From an uncultured Clostridia bacterium (GTDB lineage Bacteria > Bacillota > Clostridia > Oscillospirales > Ruminococcaceae): DNA of 64,000 nt. The stretch is taken from positions 11,883-75,882 of the forward strand of contig CAMNXF010000014.1 in assembly GCA_946567425.1 (NCBI GenBank), given 5' to 3'. The translations under genes and the position numbers were made by a program. Shown in pieces: positions 1,051 to 47,898 of the stretch (position 1 is its first letter; the number at the start of each line of letters is the position of its first letter). The notes below the pieces were generated by a model. That model saw only the letters and a program-made list of their open reading frames with translations, was not told where the DNA came from and did no database searches.

Positions 1051-1790
1051 AGCAAAACGCCTCCATTCAGCTCGTAATCTATGTATTTTTTTCTTGCGTC
1101 GACGTATTTGCGCGTGATCTTATATTTTGAGCCGTCGCACATAATAAAGTCGTCGGCTTTCACCTCCCGTATGTTCTGATAATTTACCAGATAGCTCGCG
1201 GAAACCTTTAAAAACACTCCCGTCTGCATTATTTCCTCCGCTTGAACGTCAAACGGCTGTCTGCGGCACGCGCTTTCGACTTTTTCATTTTTTACGAGAT
1301 GAAAGATCAATCGGTGATCAAGGTACTCCACCGCAACGATCTCCGATAACGCGATAAGCACAGTGCTGTCGGCGGTTTTCACCGACAGCTTTTGCGGCGC
1401 GTTCTCAATTCGGTCAAGACATTCGTCAAGCTCCGAAAACAACTTTTCACGGGAATACGGCTTTATCAGATAAGAAAAAGCCCGCACCGAAAACGCGTCG
1501 GGCGCGTACTCGCGCGAGGAGCTGATATAGATCACCACCGAGTTTTTATCGCGTCCGCGTATCCGTCTGCCGAGTGCAATGCCGTCAAGCCCCGGCATTA
1601 TAACATCGAGAAGATATACCGTAAAGCCGTCGGCGTTCAGCTCGGAAAACCGCAAAACCTCTTCGGGCGCGGAAAAGCGGAACGTTTCCCCACAAAACCC
1701 GCGTTGTTTTATATAATCGTCCGCCAGCCCGCGGAGCGTTTCCAGATCGGCAGCGTTGTCATCGCATAAAACAAGATTTACTTTAGTCAA
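1047..1790 (-). CDS. LytTR-family response regulator (REC + LytTR)
   Basis: N-terminal LCDD, YLLDVIMPGLDG, YLIKP receiver motifs; C-terminal LytTR-like FLKVSASYLVN...I region; coupled to the kinase. Confidence 0.92.
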   Translation of the reverse strand: MTKVNLVLCDDNAADLETLRGLADDYIKQRGFCGETFRFSAPEEVLRFSELNADGFTVYLLDVIMPGLDGIALGRRIRGRDKNSVVIYISSSREYAPDAFSVRAFSYLIKPYSREKLFSELDECLDRIENAPQKLSVKTADSTVLIALSEIVAVEYLDHRLIFHLVKNEKVESACRRQPFDVQAEEIMQTGVFLKVSASYLVNYQNIREVKADDFIMCDGSKYKITRKYVDARKKYIDYELNGGVLL

Positions 1791-1812
1791 TTTCTTTATT
1801 CCCCCCCGACTA

Positions 1813-1841
1813 ATTATATCATAAAAAAAAATTCATGTCAA
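1813..1841 (-). promoter_or_regulatory. SigA-type promoter of the LytTR/kinase operon
   Basis: Minus strand TTGACA(1841-1836)-17 nt-TATAAT(1818-1813) with TG extension. Confidence 0.85.
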
Positions 1842-1890
1842 CATTTATCGACAAACGGGAAATATCCAAAAACCCCGTTTCGATGTAAAT

Positions 1891-1952
1891 TAAGTGATTT
1901 TCCTGTCAATTAAGTGATCGCTATTGAAAAAATCGTCGTATTTTGTTAAACT
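1891..1952 (+). promoter_or_regulatory. Direct-repeat operator plus promoter of the MCP gene
   Basis: TAAGTGAT at 1891 and 1911, 5 nt, TTGAAA(1924)-17 nt-TAAACT(1947); same architecture recurs at 3993-4054. Confidence 0.7.
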
Positions 1953-1989
1953 TATATTTACAAATTTTCTAATTTGGGGAGAACGATCT

Positions 1990-3972
1990 ATGAAAAGAAA
2001 AAGTCTGCTCACAAGCATTTTGTTATCTTCTGCGGGAATGCTGGCGGCTGCGCTTGTCGCGGTCTGTTTGATTTTTTCCGTGAACGTAAATATCAGATAC
2101 ACGACCTCGATAAAGTCGGATCTGTATCATACCGTAGCGGCTGAATCCGCGAAAATGGACACATGGTTCACCAAGCACACGACCATAGCGGAAGATTTTG
2201 CCAAGTCCGCCGCGAAACAAAACCTTCACAATGAAACACTGCAAGAATATATGCTGGACGTTGTTCACACCACATCAGAAAGCATTATGAACGGGTATCT
2301 CGCGTGGGAGACCGATACGGTGGGAATGGTGTGCAGCGTTTACCCTGTAGATGAGGATTACGTCGCACAGGAGCGCGGCTGGTATCAAAGCGCCAAAAGC
2401 ACCCGCTCCACGATCGTTACCGACCCGTACATAGACGCGATCACGGGAAAAATCGTTATCACGGTTGCCAGTCCGCTGCTTTCGGGGAACGATGTGCTCG
2501 GCGTGTGCGGTCTGGATATCGAGATAAGCGAAATCGTTTCCATAAGTCAGGAACTTAAAGCTGACGAGGGAGGATATGCGGTTCTGGTTGACAGCTCCGA
2601 CAACATAGTAGCTCACGCCGAAAATCAGGAGTATTCGCACATGCTGCTTGAGGACGGCAAGACCGAAAAGGTCACAAAGCTCGTTGACATCGCGCCGATC
2701 TACAGCGAGGTCCTTGCGGCGGCGGGCAGCACGAACGTTGTTTCGGGAAAGGGCTACGACGGCTCTATGCGCTATTTTCCCGTTGTTCCTATCGGCGACA
2801 CGGGATGGAAGGTGCTTTACGCGGCGGATTACAACGAAGCGATGTCGCGGCTTAACAACATTATCATTCTGGCGGTGATCGTTTCGCTGGCGGCGATATT
2901 CGGCGGCGGTCTGTTCTTCTGGCTGAAATTCACAAAGCGCCTGAAACCGCTGTCGGAGATAGAGAATATCGTCACAAATATGTCGAACGGCGTTCTGGAA
3001 CACAACTACCCCAAAGCCGCAAACGACGAGATCGGCACAATCTGCGGAGCGCTTATGAGAACCAACGCTTCGCTGAAATCATATATTGACGGGATAGAAC
3101 AGATTCTTTCGGATATGGCGGACGGCAGGTTTGCGTACAACAGCAGCGTTCAATTCGTCGGGGAATTTACCGCTATGGAGAAGTCGATAAAGCATATCTG
3201 CGAGGCAATGACCTCGACGTTCGCGGAGCTTAACACGATCTCGGATCAGATATCGGGCGGCTCGCGCAGCGTGTCCGTCGGCGCGTCGGAGCTTGCCCGT
3301 GCCGTAAATGATGAAACGCGGCTTATCGTCGACGTTTCCGCCAGCTTCGGCGACATCAACAACAAAGTATCGCAGTCCGCGGAAAACGCGTTCTCGGTCA
3401 AGGAGAGGGCGCTTAAGGCAGCCGACGCGGTAAGCGCGGGCAACGATAAAATGCAGGACCTCGTAAACATTATGGACAGCATTTCGCGCTCCGCGGACGA
3501 GATAGTCAAGATCAACTCCACAATCGAGGACATAGCGTTCCAGACGAATATACTCGCGCTCAACGCGTCGATTGAAGCAGCGCGCGCGGGCGCGGCGGGC
3601 AAGGGCTTTGCCGTTGTCGCTGAAGAAGTGCGCAATCTCGCGGCAAAATCCTCAGATGCCTCAAAGATAACAGCGGAGCTTATCGAGCATACGGTAAAGG
3701 CTATCGAGAGCGGCACGGAGGCGGTAAACTCAACTGCTGAAATGCTGAGCGGCATAGTTCGCGAAACGGATTCGATAAGCGGCTCGGTATCGGAAATAGC
3801 CGACGTTTCCGAAGCGCAAAAGACTATGCTCGCAGGAATTTCGGAGAAACTCAGGGAGGTAGAAACTGTCATCGAAAAGACGGACTCTGCCGCGCAGAAT
3901 TCCGCTGCCGCAAGCGAGGAGCTTGACGGTCAGGCGGCTCTGCTTAAAGAGCACCTTGACCGTTTCGAGTGA
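1990..3972 (+). CDS. Methyl-accepting chemotaxis protein (TM-Cache-TM-HAMP-MCP)
   Basis: Two TM segments, Cache-like [17 protein letters not shown], signalling hairpin [37 protein letters not shown]; ATG 1990 after GGGGAG. Confidence 0.95.
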
Positions 3973-33110: not shown

Positions 33111-33218
33111 TTATGGGGGCAGACCCTGTGCAATGGGGTGCCGCGAACCATGTCAGGCGGTGACCCGAGCAGCATTAAGCGGATTTCCCCGTGTGCCGCA
33201 GCAAGTCTGTTCCCATAA
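33111..33218 (+). ncRNA. ffs: Signal recognition particle RNA (small form)
   Basis: Closing stem TTATGGGGGCAGAC/GTCTGTTCCCATAA; helix-8 core GAACCATGTCAGG-CGG-TGAC-CCG-AGCAGCATTAAG; conserved position upstream of dnaX. Confidence 0.9.
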
Positions 33219-45046: not shown

Positions 45047-45235
45047 AAAAAGGAGACCGCTATCGATCTCCCGTGCTTTTCAATACAGTACCGCCTTGCC
45101 GTAAGATGCAATATAAAACCCGCTTCTGGCAGGGTGGGTAAGATCGCCCGACGTTTTCACGCTCCCGCCAACCGTAAGCCGAGGCTTACGAGAGGTCTGC
45201 AATCCGCCGCCGGAGCCGAAATCCCGTTTACAATG
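45047..45235 (-). ncRNA. ssrS: Probable 6S RNA
   Basis: ~190 nt between TATAAT (45247-45242) and terminator GGAGATCG..CGGTCTCC-TTTTT; long irregular rod with central bubble; GGGAGC and CCCACCCTGC..AGCGGGTT resemble Firmicute 6S as recalled; not model-tested. Confidence 0.6.
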
Positions 45236-45311
45236 TGTTGGATTATAGTAGCACACATTCGCGAGTAAGGCAGTAGTATAAACAATATTATTCTTTCCGC
45301 AGCTGCTGAAA

Positions 45312-45647
45312 TTATTCGTTCACGCCGTCAAACTTCTCCAGATCTTCAATATCCAACTCGGGAAGCTCCGCAAAACGCTTCAGGAACATTTCGCCCGCCG
45401 CGTTGTATTCCGCGTCGTCATCCACGGTCGCGAGCATCGGCTCTCCGTCCGTTACAATCTCCTTGAGTACGACAAATTCCGACGCGCCCTCTTCTTCATC
45501 GTAGTCGGCGGGGATAAGCGCGTAATATACTGCGCCGTCCAACTCCGCGCGGTCTACAAACTCAAACCGCGTTACGTTTCCTTCCTCGTCCTCAAGCTCG
45601 ATAATTCCTTCGTCCTCGTCAAGGAAAGCCTCTTCATTTTCAGCCAT
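45312..45647 (-). CDS. DUF1292 family acidic protein
   Basis: IIELEDEEG..RFEFVD.....G.YYAL, DD.EY....F pattern. Confidence 0.85.
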   Translation of the reverse strand: MAENEEAFLDEDEGIIELEDEEGNVTRFEFVDRAELDGAVYYALIPADYDEEEGASEFVVLKEIVTDGEPMLATVDDDAEYNAAGEMFLKRFAELPELDIEDLEKFDGVNE

Positions 45648-45851
45648 ATCCCGCCGCCTTTCTTTGCATGAAATTTTCTTTTAAAAAGAACCACGCTTGT
45701 GCTTATATTTTACACTAACAGCGGGCTGTTGTCAAGAGGAAATTTCGGGAAACGCGCGTTTTTCACGTTATTTACATAATAATCATTACTTTCAACAAAA
45801 CAGATAGTAAAAATATATACAAAACGCCTATGGAAAAATTGAAAATTTCTA

Positions 45852-46518
45852 TTGACTTTTAACAAAAAATATGGTATCATTATATCAAGGAAAGAGAGAA
45901 CCCGAAGACAAGCCGAGAGGTCGGTACGGGGTCTCCTTTAAATACACCGAAAGGAGTTCAGTCCAATGGAAAGCTGAGTTTAAGGCAGTAAGGTGAAGGC
46001 TTGGTAGAGTCTAGCCGCTACTTTGAAAGGAGTTACTCCAATGGCTTGATGAACTTGCAGAGGGAAAAAATTTCAGCTTTAAGCAGAAAGGAAGCGAGTC
46101 CGATGGAAACAATTGAAAAACCTTTTGATCTGTCTGCGGAGTCGCAACCCGCCGACCGCTGAGGTTAAATATATGGCGAAGATTTGCGCGGGATAATCTC
46201 CCGAAAACGCAAAAACCGCCGCGACAACGGTGTTTTACCGAATTACAAACCGCAGAGGTTTCAGGCAGTCCGCAGATATTTTCAACCGCGTTAAGCGTTT
46301 ACATAGATAAGCCGAATCGAAAGTGGTGATTGCGATGTGCGCTTTAATCGAAGGGGAACGAAAATATTAGCTCGCGGAGCTTAACGAAAGGATTGAGTCC
46401 GATGTCCGATAAAATTTGCTCAACGATCAAATTTTAATAAGGAGTACGGTCCGATGTAATATCAAATTTAACAATTGAATATTTTGAGTCCCCGTGAGAA
46501 ACGGGGACTCATTTGTTT
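45852..46518 (+). other. Promoter-to-terminator unit without a long ORF: array of SD-hairpin-ATG minigenes or structured ncRNA
   Basis: TTGACT-17-TATCAT; five AAGGA-N5/6-TCC-R-ATG units; terminator GAGTCCCCGT-GAGAA-ACGGGGACTC-ATTTGTTT. Confidence 0.65.
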
Positions 46519-46568
46519 ACGCCGCTATAACGGATAAGCGGAGAGCCGCTAAGCTCTCCGCTTTTTTA

Positions 46569-47408
46569 TTATCCGTTGAAGAAGATAACCGTGCCCGCGT
46601 TTCGGGTCTCGTCTATCGCATTCTGCATACGGTCGAACAATTCGGCAAAACGCATACTGTGAATGCTTGCGGAGAGCCTTATTGCCCCCACGCGCATCGT
46701 AAGCGGGATACCTCTGCCGTTGAAATCGACGGGCTGCCCGTTCAGGTCGATCACCTTTCGGGCGGTCTGCTCGGCGGCGGTCTTGTCGTCCGTTCCCGTT
46801 ACCACGGCGAACTCGTCACCGCCTATACGGAACGCCGCCATTGTGTCGCCTGCCGCCGCGTCTACACGGTGGAAAGCCTCGCGGATGACCACGTCGCCCG
46901 CGTCTCTGCCGATGTTTTTATTGACCTCCGTGAAATTCACAATGTCAAAGCAAAGCACCCAATTGTCGCGCTCCGTCGGTCTGAGTTCGTTGTAAAGCTC
47001 GGTAATATCTACTCGTCTGCCCATATAAATTCCTCCTTTAAACGTGCGTTCGTCGGGGATTATCCGCGGAAATATCCCCGTAGAATGCCATTCCGTTCTG
47101 AATTTTGATGGAGAAACGCCCCACAGCTTGCGGAAAGCTCTTGTGAAAACCTCAGGGGAATTGTAGCAGTATTTCATTGCGATCTCGGTCAGCGTCATAT
47201 CGGTATGCGCGATGTCCTCCGCGCTTCTCGTAAGCCGGCGTTTGGCGATGTATTCCTTGAGGCTCGTGTGTGTGCAGTAACGCCACACCTTTTGCAGCGC
47301 CGACAGCGAACAAAAGCACGCCGCCGCGACATCCTCCTGCGTTATGCCGTTGCACAAATTATCCTCAATGTAATTCACCGCGTCCGCAAAAATACAGAAA
47401 TTCTTCAT
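46569..47408 (-). CDS. AraC-family HTH fused to GGDEF domain
   Basis: Double HTH (LTEIAMKYCYNSPEVFTRAFRKLWGVSPS); FDIVNFTEVN..GRDAGD, FRIGGDEF. Confidence 0.88.
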   Translation of the reverse strand: MKNFCIFADAVNYIEDNLCNGITQEDVAAACFCSLSALQKVWRYCTHTSLKEYIAKRRLTRSAEDIAHTDMTLTEIAMKYCYNSPEVFTRAFRKLWGVSPSKFRTEWHSTGIFPRIIPDERTFKGGIYMGRRVDITELYNELRPTERDNWVLCFDIVNFTEVNKNIGRDAGDVVIREAFHRVDAAAGDTMAAFRIGGDEFAVVTGTDDKTAAEQTARKVIDLNGQPVDFNGRGIPLTMRVGAIRLSASIHSMRFAELFDRMQNAIDETRNAGTVIFFNG

Positions 47409-47541
47409 TGCTCCACCTCCGTTACAGACAGCGCTTATCTGTGATTATATTGTAGCATACTTTTTCTTTTCTGTCTTGATTTTTTGAGCATATTTTCGCG
47501 AAAAAAACTCTCCGAAAAACGGGGAGTTTTCGTTTAAATAA

Positions 47542-47898
47542 AGTGACTTTATCGATAAGCCGAGTTCTGTCGTGTATGATCATCTATCTAGCCCCGCCGT
47601 CGCCGACGGGATCAAGCCACCTTTCAACGGGGCGCGCCGAGCAGACGCGTTATCCCCCGCACCAATCGGTGTTGCATCGGATAGGGTTTACATGGCAGTA
47701 CGCTCTCGCGCACTCCGGTGAGCTCTTACCTCGCCTTTCCATCCTTACCGTTTTCCCTTTTCAAGGGTTGCGGCGGTATATCTCTGTTGCACTTGCCCTA
47801 AGGTCGCCCTCGGCTGACGTTATCAGCTACCCTGCTCTGTGATGCTCGGACTTTCCTCATTGCGCTCTCACGCACCGCGATCATATAATAAAGTCACT
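47542..47898 (-). ncRNA. rnpB: RNase P RNA (type A)
   Basis: GAGGAAAGTCC, AGTGCAACAGA, GTAAACCC, ACAGAACTCGGCTTA; P1 AGTGACTTTAT/ATAAAGTCACT. Confidence 0.97.

Follow-up and report, generated by a model that had tools for sequence, protein, structure and literature searches.

What might a bacterial RNA be for when its most conserved parts are the beginnings of genes that hardly follow? The question is raised by positions 45852–46518 of a 64,000-nt stretch of DNA (hereafter the window; positions 11,883 to 75,882 of contig CAMNXF010000014.1, assembly GCA_946567425.1) from an uncultured Clostridia bacterium of the Ruminococcaceae. A preliminary description, made from the letters of the window, had recognized here a promoter, a terminator and, between them, five near-identical initiation units, each made of a Shine–Dalgarno (SD) sequence, a short hairpin and a start codon, that open ultra-short open reading frames (ORFs). 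It offered several readings: a sponge for ribosomes or for a CsrA-like protein, a translation-sensing device, an array of peptide signals, or a decayed array of type I toxin-like genes. Bacteria have few large, ornate RNAs whose function is unknown, and new biology has come from every one of them; the clue offered by this one is a conserved core of what look like complete ribosome start sites that encode next to nothing, adjoined by a 6S RNA gene. We find that the locus is an undescribed RNA gene, and we hold it somewhat better than an even bet (roughly 0.55) that its product is a structured RNA that would engage ribosomes instead of encoding a protein.

A stand-alone RNA gene in one clade of gut bacteria

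The gene at 45852–46518 (forward strand) is stand-alone, encodes an RNA of ~630 nt, and has its own promoter and terminator (Table 1). Both were found by consensus scan and both are kept in 46 near-full-length homologues, which supports the earlier view of a single transcription unit that is not a conventional coding gene. Specifically, the promoter matches the consensus at 10 of 12 positions and carries in addition the TG of an extended −10 (45872–45873); an A/T-rich conserved block (ATATATACAAAA) lies upstream of it, and CTATTGACTT together with the −10 is nearly invariant in sets of 20 and of 46 homologues. At the other end, each pair of the terminator stem occurs as several pair types across species, i.e., the terminator covaries. 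A second terminator-like hairpin (46536–46563) stands between the terminator of the RNA and a convergent AraC–GGDEF gene (46569–47408, reverse strand), and is probably the terminator of that gene.

By DNA search, the element occurs in 33 of 37 genomes of the same genus and essentially not at all in 24 other families. The homologues collected number 50 (one per species), 46 of them near full length, and all fall in one genus-level clade of uncultured Oscillospiraceae-type gut bacteria; the species compared here share ancestry and are not independent samples, and the cross-species counts below should be read with that in mind. An exact-pattern scan for the most conserved unit (one genome per GTDB species) likewise returned 46 species, all of them gut metagenome-assembled genomes (MAGs) assigned to uncultured Oscillospiraceae, Ruminococcaceae or Clostridia, e.g., Eubacterium sp. 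CAG:786. In alignments of most homologues, the promoter, the 5′ start CAAGGAAA, all units, the blocks GCGUUUACAUAGAU and ACAAUUGAAUA and the terminator keep the same places, and lineage-specific hairpins of 20–150 nt are inserted between these conserved blocks (e.g., the ~150-nt insertion within the 5′ leader region of L006 and L050)—a pattern typical of structured RNA.

No named element like this had been known to the preliminary description, and the Rfam search of the locus bears it out. Positions 45650–46620 have no match in Rfam 15 at gathering score, and with E-values allowed up to 10 the best results are chance matches to the terminator only (rteR, 24.7 bits vs. 72; RsaJ, 21.9 vs. 100). 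The arrays of other genera described below have no Rfam matches either, and no account of an RNA like this one turned up in the literature searched. The gene is thus undescribed and absent from Rfam.

Six sites with the geometry of ribosome start sites

The units form the conserved core of this RNA, as the following patterns support. The five units of the preliminary description were confirmed by reading them off the sequence, together with their mini-ORFs (MES, MA, METIEKPFDLSAESQPADR, MSDKICSTIKF and M, each followed by a stop); in the RNA they are five near-identical copies of the form GAAAGGA-N5-6-(G)UCC-R-AUG. Two looser units had been proposed as well. Relatives conserve the one at 46335 (MCALIEGERKY), which thus counts as a genuine sixth unit (U3b in Table 1), whereas that at 46173 (MAKICAG) is not conserved, its AUG being ACG in relatives. 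The clustering is beyond chance: counting both strands, the 2.9-Mb genome has eight copies of the strict motif GA[AG]AGG-N4-9-[CT]CC[ACG]ATG, close to what base frequencies would give, yet four of the eight fall within 450 nt at this locus (a looser pattern finds five there). Outside the window, one isolated strict unit (GAAAGGAGATGGAGTCCAATG) is intergenic (C18:11075–11095, reverse strand) and is followed by a 20-codon Lys/Arg-rich frame.

U3, U4 and U5 are kept in all 46 species, and U1 and U2 are degenerate in one clade. AUG is present in 41/46 species at U1 (aligned SD-to-start spacing 8–9 nt), in 37/46 at U2 (7–8 nt), and in every species at U4 and at U5, where CCRAUGUAAUA is nearly invariant. 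The start of U3 is AUG in 36 species and GUG in the remaining 10, which make up a single clade, so that here one start codon has been swapped for another at a spacing of 8 nt. U3 is also the most conserved block of the whole RNA (46070–46116, 92–97% identity in distant species). U3b starts with AUG or GUG in 42/46 species and has an aligned spacing of 8 nt in 36 of the 41 scored; it uses the GGUGAU part of the Firmicute extended SD sequence, with GGUGAUU nearly invariant, and shares the direct repeat D2 with U4. Across all six units, the aligned spacing is 7–9 nt in nearly all of the 46 species.

The host MAG carries no 16S ribosomal RNA (rRNA) gene, and the 3′ tail (GGAUCACCUCCUUUCU) was taken from relatives of the same order. 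Scored against its complement (AGAAAGGAGGUGAUCC), the six units contain exact matches of 4–8 nt: the longest match is 7–8 nt at U1–U4, mostly 6–7 nt at U3b (range 5–7) and 4–7 nt at U5. With this complementarity and a start codon 7–9 nt away, all six units are predicted to be functional ribosome binding sites (RBSs). RNAduplex joins each unit to the tail at two places, the SD tract to CCUCCUUUC and the downstream UCC to the tail-base GGA, and these duplexes are predicted at −14 to −17 kcal/mol, vs. −6 to −10 kcal/mol for shuffled units. Ordinary genes of the order (starts in L115, L117, L122 and L078) have RBSs of the form GAAAGGA-NUGAUUCC-R-AUG, whose complementarity reaches the tail-base GGA with one bulged base.

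The same GGA and UCC can pair with each other, as the preliminary description had pointed out in proposing a hairpin for each unit. The pairing is possible; however, the hairpins are weak (2–4 bp, −1 to −4 kcal/mol), and in many species those of U1 and U5 lack the third pair. Such hairpins, together with the heavily structured state of the RNA, lend weight to a different explanation, in which the units serve a large ribonucleoprotein (RNP) as structural or protein-binding modules, e.g., SD:anti-SD look-alikes bound by bS21 or another small-subunit protein; their likeness to RBSs would then be a by-product, and the stops would only prevent accidental translation from unfolding the RNA. We regard such RNP modules as unlikely, while counting them the most serious of the alternatives. 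On their side stand the fourth stem pair of U2, which occurs as GC, AU, UA and CG (about half of the sequences are unpaired there), and a precedent in OLE RNA, whose mimic is bound by bS21 (PMC12054373). Against them, besides the weakness of the hairpins, stands the start-site geometry: U3b keeps an equal spacing to its AUG with a different segment of the SD, and AUG was exchanged for GUG, neither of which this alternative explains. Of the known RNA motifs with which the units were compared (kink-turn, sarcin–ricin, loop E, 11-nt tetraloop receptor and T-loop), none fits their conserved positions.

Table 1. Features of the RNA gene and its neighbors, in window coordinates; neighboring genes are listed last.
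Feature	Position	Strand	Details
Sigma-A type promoter	45852–45880	+	−35 TTGACT (45852–45857), 17-nt spacer, −10 TATCAT (45875–45880), extended −10 TG-N-TATCAT
5′ leader hairpin	45888–45939	+	length variable; larger inserts take its place in some species
Unit 1 (U1)	45949–45977	+	GAAAGGAGTTCAGTCCAATG 45949–45968; GAAAGGAG-N9-AUG; mini-ORF AUG GAA AGC UGA
Unit 2 (U2)	46025–46049	+	GAAAGGAGTTACTCCAATG 46025–46043; GAAAGGAG-N8-AUG; mini-ORF AUG GCU UGA
Unit 3 (U3) with preceding small hairpin C-AGC/GCA-G	46074–46162	+	GAAAGGAAGCGAGTCCGATG 46086–46105; core AGAAAGGAAGCGAGUCCGAUG; 19-codon frame
Central multi-helix domain	46132–46277	+	closed by long-range helix GUCUGCGGA (46132–46140)/UCCGCAGAU (46269–46277)
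Nearly invariant block GCGUUUACAUAGAU	46295–46308	+	most columns invariant in alignments A1 and A2
Unit 3b (U3b), sixth unit	46319–46370	+	GAAAGUGGUGAUUGCGAUG 46319–46337; GAAAGUGGUGAU-N4-AUG; 11-codon frame
Unit 4 (U4)	46386–46437	+	GAAAGGATTGAGTCCGATG 46386–46404; GAAAGGAUUGAGUCCGAUG; 11-codon frame over hairpin AAAAUUUGC/(G)CAAAUUUU
Unit 5 (U5)	46438–46459	+	TAAGGAGTACGGTCCGATG 46438–46456; UAAGGAG-N9-AUG-UAA start-stop element
Invariant block ACAAUUGAAUA	46471–46481	+	directly 5′ of terminator; invariant in 20-sequence alignment
Intrinsic terminator	46485–46518	+	11-bp GC-rich stem, 5-nt loop, T run; hairpin 46485–46511
DUF1292 gene	45312–45647	−	divergent from RNA gene; Pfam DUF1292, E 1.5e-14
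6S RNA gene	45084–45279	−	directly downstream of DUF1292 gene (pair spans 45084–45647); full-length match, 38.6 bits, E 2e-6

Early stops are frame-specific and the peptides are not conserved

Three of the units (U1, U2 and U5) have the makeup of minigenes or start-stop elements, i.e., an SD, an AUG and a stop within about three codons in frame. The stops are specific to the frame of the start codon. At U1, the in-frame ORF has four codons or fewer in 37 of 41 species, whereas the two alternative frames are that short in 12 and 13; the corresponding figures are 34/37 vs. 4 and 1/37 at U2, and 46/46 (all with one to three codons) vs. 14 and 4/46 at U5. The early stop also shifts its place and changes its identity among clades (AUG-UAA, AUG-AAC-UAG, AUG-UAC-UGA, AUG-AAC-CAG-UAA), which is what selective maintenance looks like, even with species that are not independent samples.

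What these frames encode is, on the contrary, not kept. The preliminary description had proposed to test whether the units are conserved while their peptides vary. The units persist in most of the 46 species, and the one-to-three-codon frames differ by clade (MES, MGC or MN at U1; MA or MHL at U2; M, MN or MY at U5). Its idea of an array of peptide signals finds no support in this comparison. Nor does an operon of small peptides, in which the 19-, 11- and 11-residue frames of U3, U3b and U4 would yield micropeptides or signaling peptides, fare well; we consider it highly improbable. These frames do have good ribosome sites, and that of U3, always 17–23 codons long, reads ME..E....SAES..A.R in most species. 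However, four species (L012, L027, L053 and L055) have U3 in another frame although their nucleotides GUCUGCGGAGUCGC are unchanged, and these nucleotides are the 5′ strand of a long-range helix that the frame traverses, so that SAES comes from an invariant helix strand. The U4 frame has 11–12 codons in 29 species and only three in 13, and the hairpin that it covers (AAAAUUUGC/(G)CAAAUUUU) shows compensatory changes (e.g., L008 vs. L001) that alter the encoded residues. Half of the units encode zero to three residues, and the 46-homologue comparison revealed no conserved frame or residues of the kind that a small-ORF operon would have. The U4 stop lies 16 nt before the AUG of U5, that is, at the U5 SD, and a stop-to-AUG distance of 13–16 nt is found in 28/46 species.

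A covarying structure between the sites

Between the units, the RNA forms several covarying helices, which the preliminary description, with its structured 5′ leader, had missed. The leader itself is well founded, as its inner stem (45913–45916/45921–45924) occurs as CG, UA, AU and GC pairs across species and thus covaries. Within the central domain, nested helices (46175–46193/46199–46220) and a hairpin (46229–46231/46237–46239) lie inside the long-range helix, whose outer pair is G–C in 20 species, A–U in 15 and G–U in nine.

The base pairs of this domain covary. On a 45-sequence alignment (A1), a hand-assembled structure of 38 pairs has compensatory changes at 19 of them, with 91% of cells paired; none of 500 shuffles reached the central-domain values observed, and sliding the 3′ partners by 1–3 columns left 26–44% paired. 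The single-sequence fold is also more stable than its shuffles (z = −3.0). RNAalifold returned almost no consensus for the whole 1,200-column alignment or for its 3′ part, because of the lineage-specific inserts, and segment alignments, averaged pair probabilities and the hand-assembled structure were therefore used; in a naive search, compatible helices were drowned out by noise from U-rich stretches and G–U pairs. The structural model covers the 5′ and 3′ thirds only in part. There, the nearly invariant block at 46295–46308 may pair with 46335–46344, for which candidate pairs were seen. An inter-unit duplex between U1 and U2 (CCRAUGG/CCRAUGG), which the averaged pair probabilities had brought up, was rejected, as one clade, and likewise U4 and U5, have lost the G's that flank it.

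The strong purifying selection seen in 50 species and the base-pair covariation speak against a decayed array of type I toxin genes, another of the earlier suggestions. The locus holds no hydrophobic ORF, and a scan for a conserved antisense promoter–terminator pair found none.

Related arrays across the order

Is the RNA an isolated curiosity of one genus? The preliminary description had not seen that its family spans an order. A sequence-only profile of its 3′ part, run against 400 genomes of the order, gave weak matches in 49 genomes from 32 genera, and many of these are stand-alone transcripts with a promoter and a terminator (judged by eye and with a unit-level hidden Markov model). Related arrays in other genera and families (L072, L074, L076, L077, L080–L083, L086, L089–L091, L095, L097, L100, L102, L105–L109 and L113) have 3–11 units with the consensus RRGGRG-UGAGUCC-R-AUG-NAC-NNN-UAA, i.e., one or two codons and then UAA. 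In a sister genus (L074, L076) the promoter and the 5′ start CAAGGAAA recur identically, so at least those copies are homologous; a block resembling ACAAUUGAAUA, ACAATTGAATACGATAGAT, is present in sister genera too.

The frame-specific stops recur in these arrays. Among 98 distinct units in 24 arrays, 66 have AUG or GUG; 48 of these 66 open frames of 2–3 codons (start included), vs. 23 and 11 in the other frames, and 46 of the 66 stops are UAA. The core AGGUGA-G-UCC is the complement of 16S GGAUCACCU plus one extra G, and the spacer (U)GAGUCC is 83–100% conserved per position across families. Outside the order, a strict two-unit pattern found nothing convincing (2 of ~385 genomes, with 4 control hits). 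One array (L089, ~1570–1990, reverse strand) contains four nearly identical tandem copies of a ~135-nt unit (GGGAGUGAGUCCGACAGGUAAUUAAGCUUUACCG), which suggests that arrays grow through recent tandem duplication.

A predicted ribosome-engaging RNA

From these patterns we infer ribosome binding and its consequence as follows. The purine tract of each site would pair with the 16S 3′ tail (5′-GGAUCACCUCCUUUCU-3′) and the downstream UCC would add pairing to the GGA at the tail base, with the start codon placed at the optimal aligned distance of 7–9 nt and, at three sites, a stop after zero to three sense codons. Ribosomes, as 30S subunits or as 70S, would bind at the units, where the great length of the SD pairing would hold them, and frames of one to three codons would permit termination without the ribosome leaving the SD. 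Ribosomes would in this way be occupied, stored or sensed, with no functional protein made. The covarying helices between the sites may set which of them are exposed, and a ribosome translating the U3 frame, for example, could do so only by opening the long-range helix around the central domain. The outcome may be that ribosomes are sequestered, that idle ones are stored or protected, or that ribosome capacity is read out. Of the readings offered at the outset, a ribosome sponge or a translation sensor fits best, given the 16S complementarity, the spacing and the frame-specific stops, whereas a CsrA sponge does not.

Several observations weigh against ribosome engagement. The UGAGUCC spacer is far more conserved than ordinary ribosome sites need; pairing through it with 16S rRNA would leave one G bulged and require helix 45 to open at its base; UCC partly sequesters the SD; the early-stop counts are phylogenetically non-independent; and all genomes compared are uncultured MAGs. 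In addition, 32 of the 98 units of other genera have no AUG (AAG, ACA, ACC, etc., in its place), often with the downstream UAA kept in register. Not all units can therefore start translation, and AUG and UAA might belong to a motif with a structural role or one that binds protein. The conserved spacer and the AUG-less units, which retain the rest of the unit motif, are also points in favor of RNP modules.

Ribosomes are not the only conceivable ligand of purine-rich sites. The GGA motifs of the units might titrate CsrA, as CsrB and RsmZ do, and this was one suggestion of the preliminary description. In its favor, the host genome encodes csrA and fliW, each unit contains A(A)GGA, and a flagellin leader carries CAAGGA sites. 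Yet four near-complete genomes of the genus that lack csrA (G003, G008, G011 and G015; 97–99% complete) keep the RNA with four intact units, arrays occur in csrA-less families (e.g., G042 and G049), and the GGA forms the 5′ strand at the foot of the hairpin, the only local stem, where CsrA sites would be expected in a loop or single-stranded linker. A conserved AUG, its spacing and the stops would moreover be irrelevant to CsrA, and we take this reading, which the distribution contradicts, to be the least probable of all. Outside the window, the fliW–csrA operon (C1:126548–127230) and the flagellin leader (C1:15040–15165, with a sigma-D-like promoter and two CAAGGA sites, one of them over the SD) form the classic CsrA–hag arrangement of Firmicutes, and four species of the genus have lost csrA. 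A copy of the unit motif upstream of csrA lies inside the fliW coding sequence and was set aside as chance.

The sites might instead soak up a C-rich regulatory small RNA that targets the SD regions of mRNAs. Several G-rich, SD-like sites on one transcript are the known logic of Firmicute RNA sponges; RosA, for instance, reportedly sponges RoxS in Bacillus subtilis. A genome scan for the complement of the unit core (CAUYGGAYY followed by a C-rich tract), however, returned nothing beyond the opposite strand of the units and scattered matches in coding sequence, and a sponge of this kind would give no reason for the conserved AUG, spacing and in-frame stops, which makes it quite improbable.

Genomic neighborhood

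The RNA gene lies 570 nt from a 6S RNA gene, with a divergent DUF1292 gene between them (Table 1). The 6S match falls below the Rfam gathering score (38.6 vs. 46.4 bits), so standard annotation would miss this gene. DUF1292 is the divergent neighbor of the RNA in 37 of 50 species, mostly at the same distance, and 6S and/or DUF1292 also adjoin arrays of other genera and of a second family; in one clade of the genus, a tRNA gene stands upstream of the RNA instead. The window further contains an RNase P RNA (47540–47896, reverse strand), a signal recognition particle RNA (33117–33215, forward strand) and four tRNA genes (11610–12017, forward strand) and, with the 6S RNA and the RNA described here, is unusually rich in RNA genes.

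A more specific proposal, which we offer tentatively and consider possible but doubtful, is that the RNA is a ribosome-directed counterpart of 6S RNA. It would be an abundant RNA, encoded beside 6S, whose arrayed "super" SD start-stop sites pair with the whole free 16S tail and, in Oscillospirales, hold, store or protect idle 30S subunits or 70S ribosomes, or gauge free capacity. Such RNAs would make up a class of riboregulators directed at the ribosome itself through imitation of mRNA start sites.

Comparison with known systems

If ribosome binding is true, regulation or storage of ribosomes through mimicry of mRNA start sites would have its first known dedicated bacterial RNA. All members of the family come from abundant, mostly uncultured gut Clostridia of one order, and the gene, unannotated and probably highly expressed, is carried by many human and animal gut genomes.

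The closest experimental precedent is OLE RNA (RF01071), in which the P6 stem mimics an SD:anti-SD duplex and binds the ribosomal protein bS21 (PMC12054373); by analogy it also keeps the RNP-module explanation alive. Both RNAs are ~600 nt long, structured, rich in invariant nucleotides and found in anaerobic Firmicutes, and in both a part of the initiation apparatus is copied. OLE RNA, however, has one mimic duplex and no start codon, whereas in the RNA described here there are six sites, each with an AUG and a stop, and the hairpin is weak. The two do not match in sequence or structure, even at E up to 10 in Rfam, and no oapA, oapB or oapC, the neighbors of OLE, is among the neighbors seen here (DUF1292, 6S RNA and the AraC–GGDEF gene), in a survey that included no search aimed at oap genes.

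With 6S RNA (RF00013) the likeness is one of principle: an abundant regulatory RNA imitates the nucleic-acid substrate of a core machine, which for 6S is the open promoter DNA bound by RNA polymerase. The target proposed here would be the ribosome instead, and the two RNAs are structurally dissimilar. CsrB and RsmZ are likewise non-coding RNAs in which a short purine motif (GGA) recurs many times, but the present RNA persists without csrA, and its motif is ~20 nt long, includes the AUG and has a fixed SD–AUG geometry.

The remaining comparisons concern ribosome sites that yield no useful product. STAB-SD elements of Bacillus mRNAs are SD-like 5′ stabilizers that bind 30S subunits without productive translation. 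Each is a single 5′ element that protects the mRNA downstream of it, whereas the sites described here are spread along the whole RNA and no gene follows them. Phage lambda bar minigenes and bacterial start-stop elements consist of an SD, an AUG, zero to two codons and a stop, and they act through ribosomes and tRNAs, their peptides being non-functional. They occur singly, inside other transcripts or phage regions; the RNA class described here is, by contrast, a dedicated chromosomal array of 3–11 sites with a conserved spacer, set in an RNA that is itself conserved and structured, and, if it does bind ribosomes, it would give minigenes and start-stop elements a natural function.

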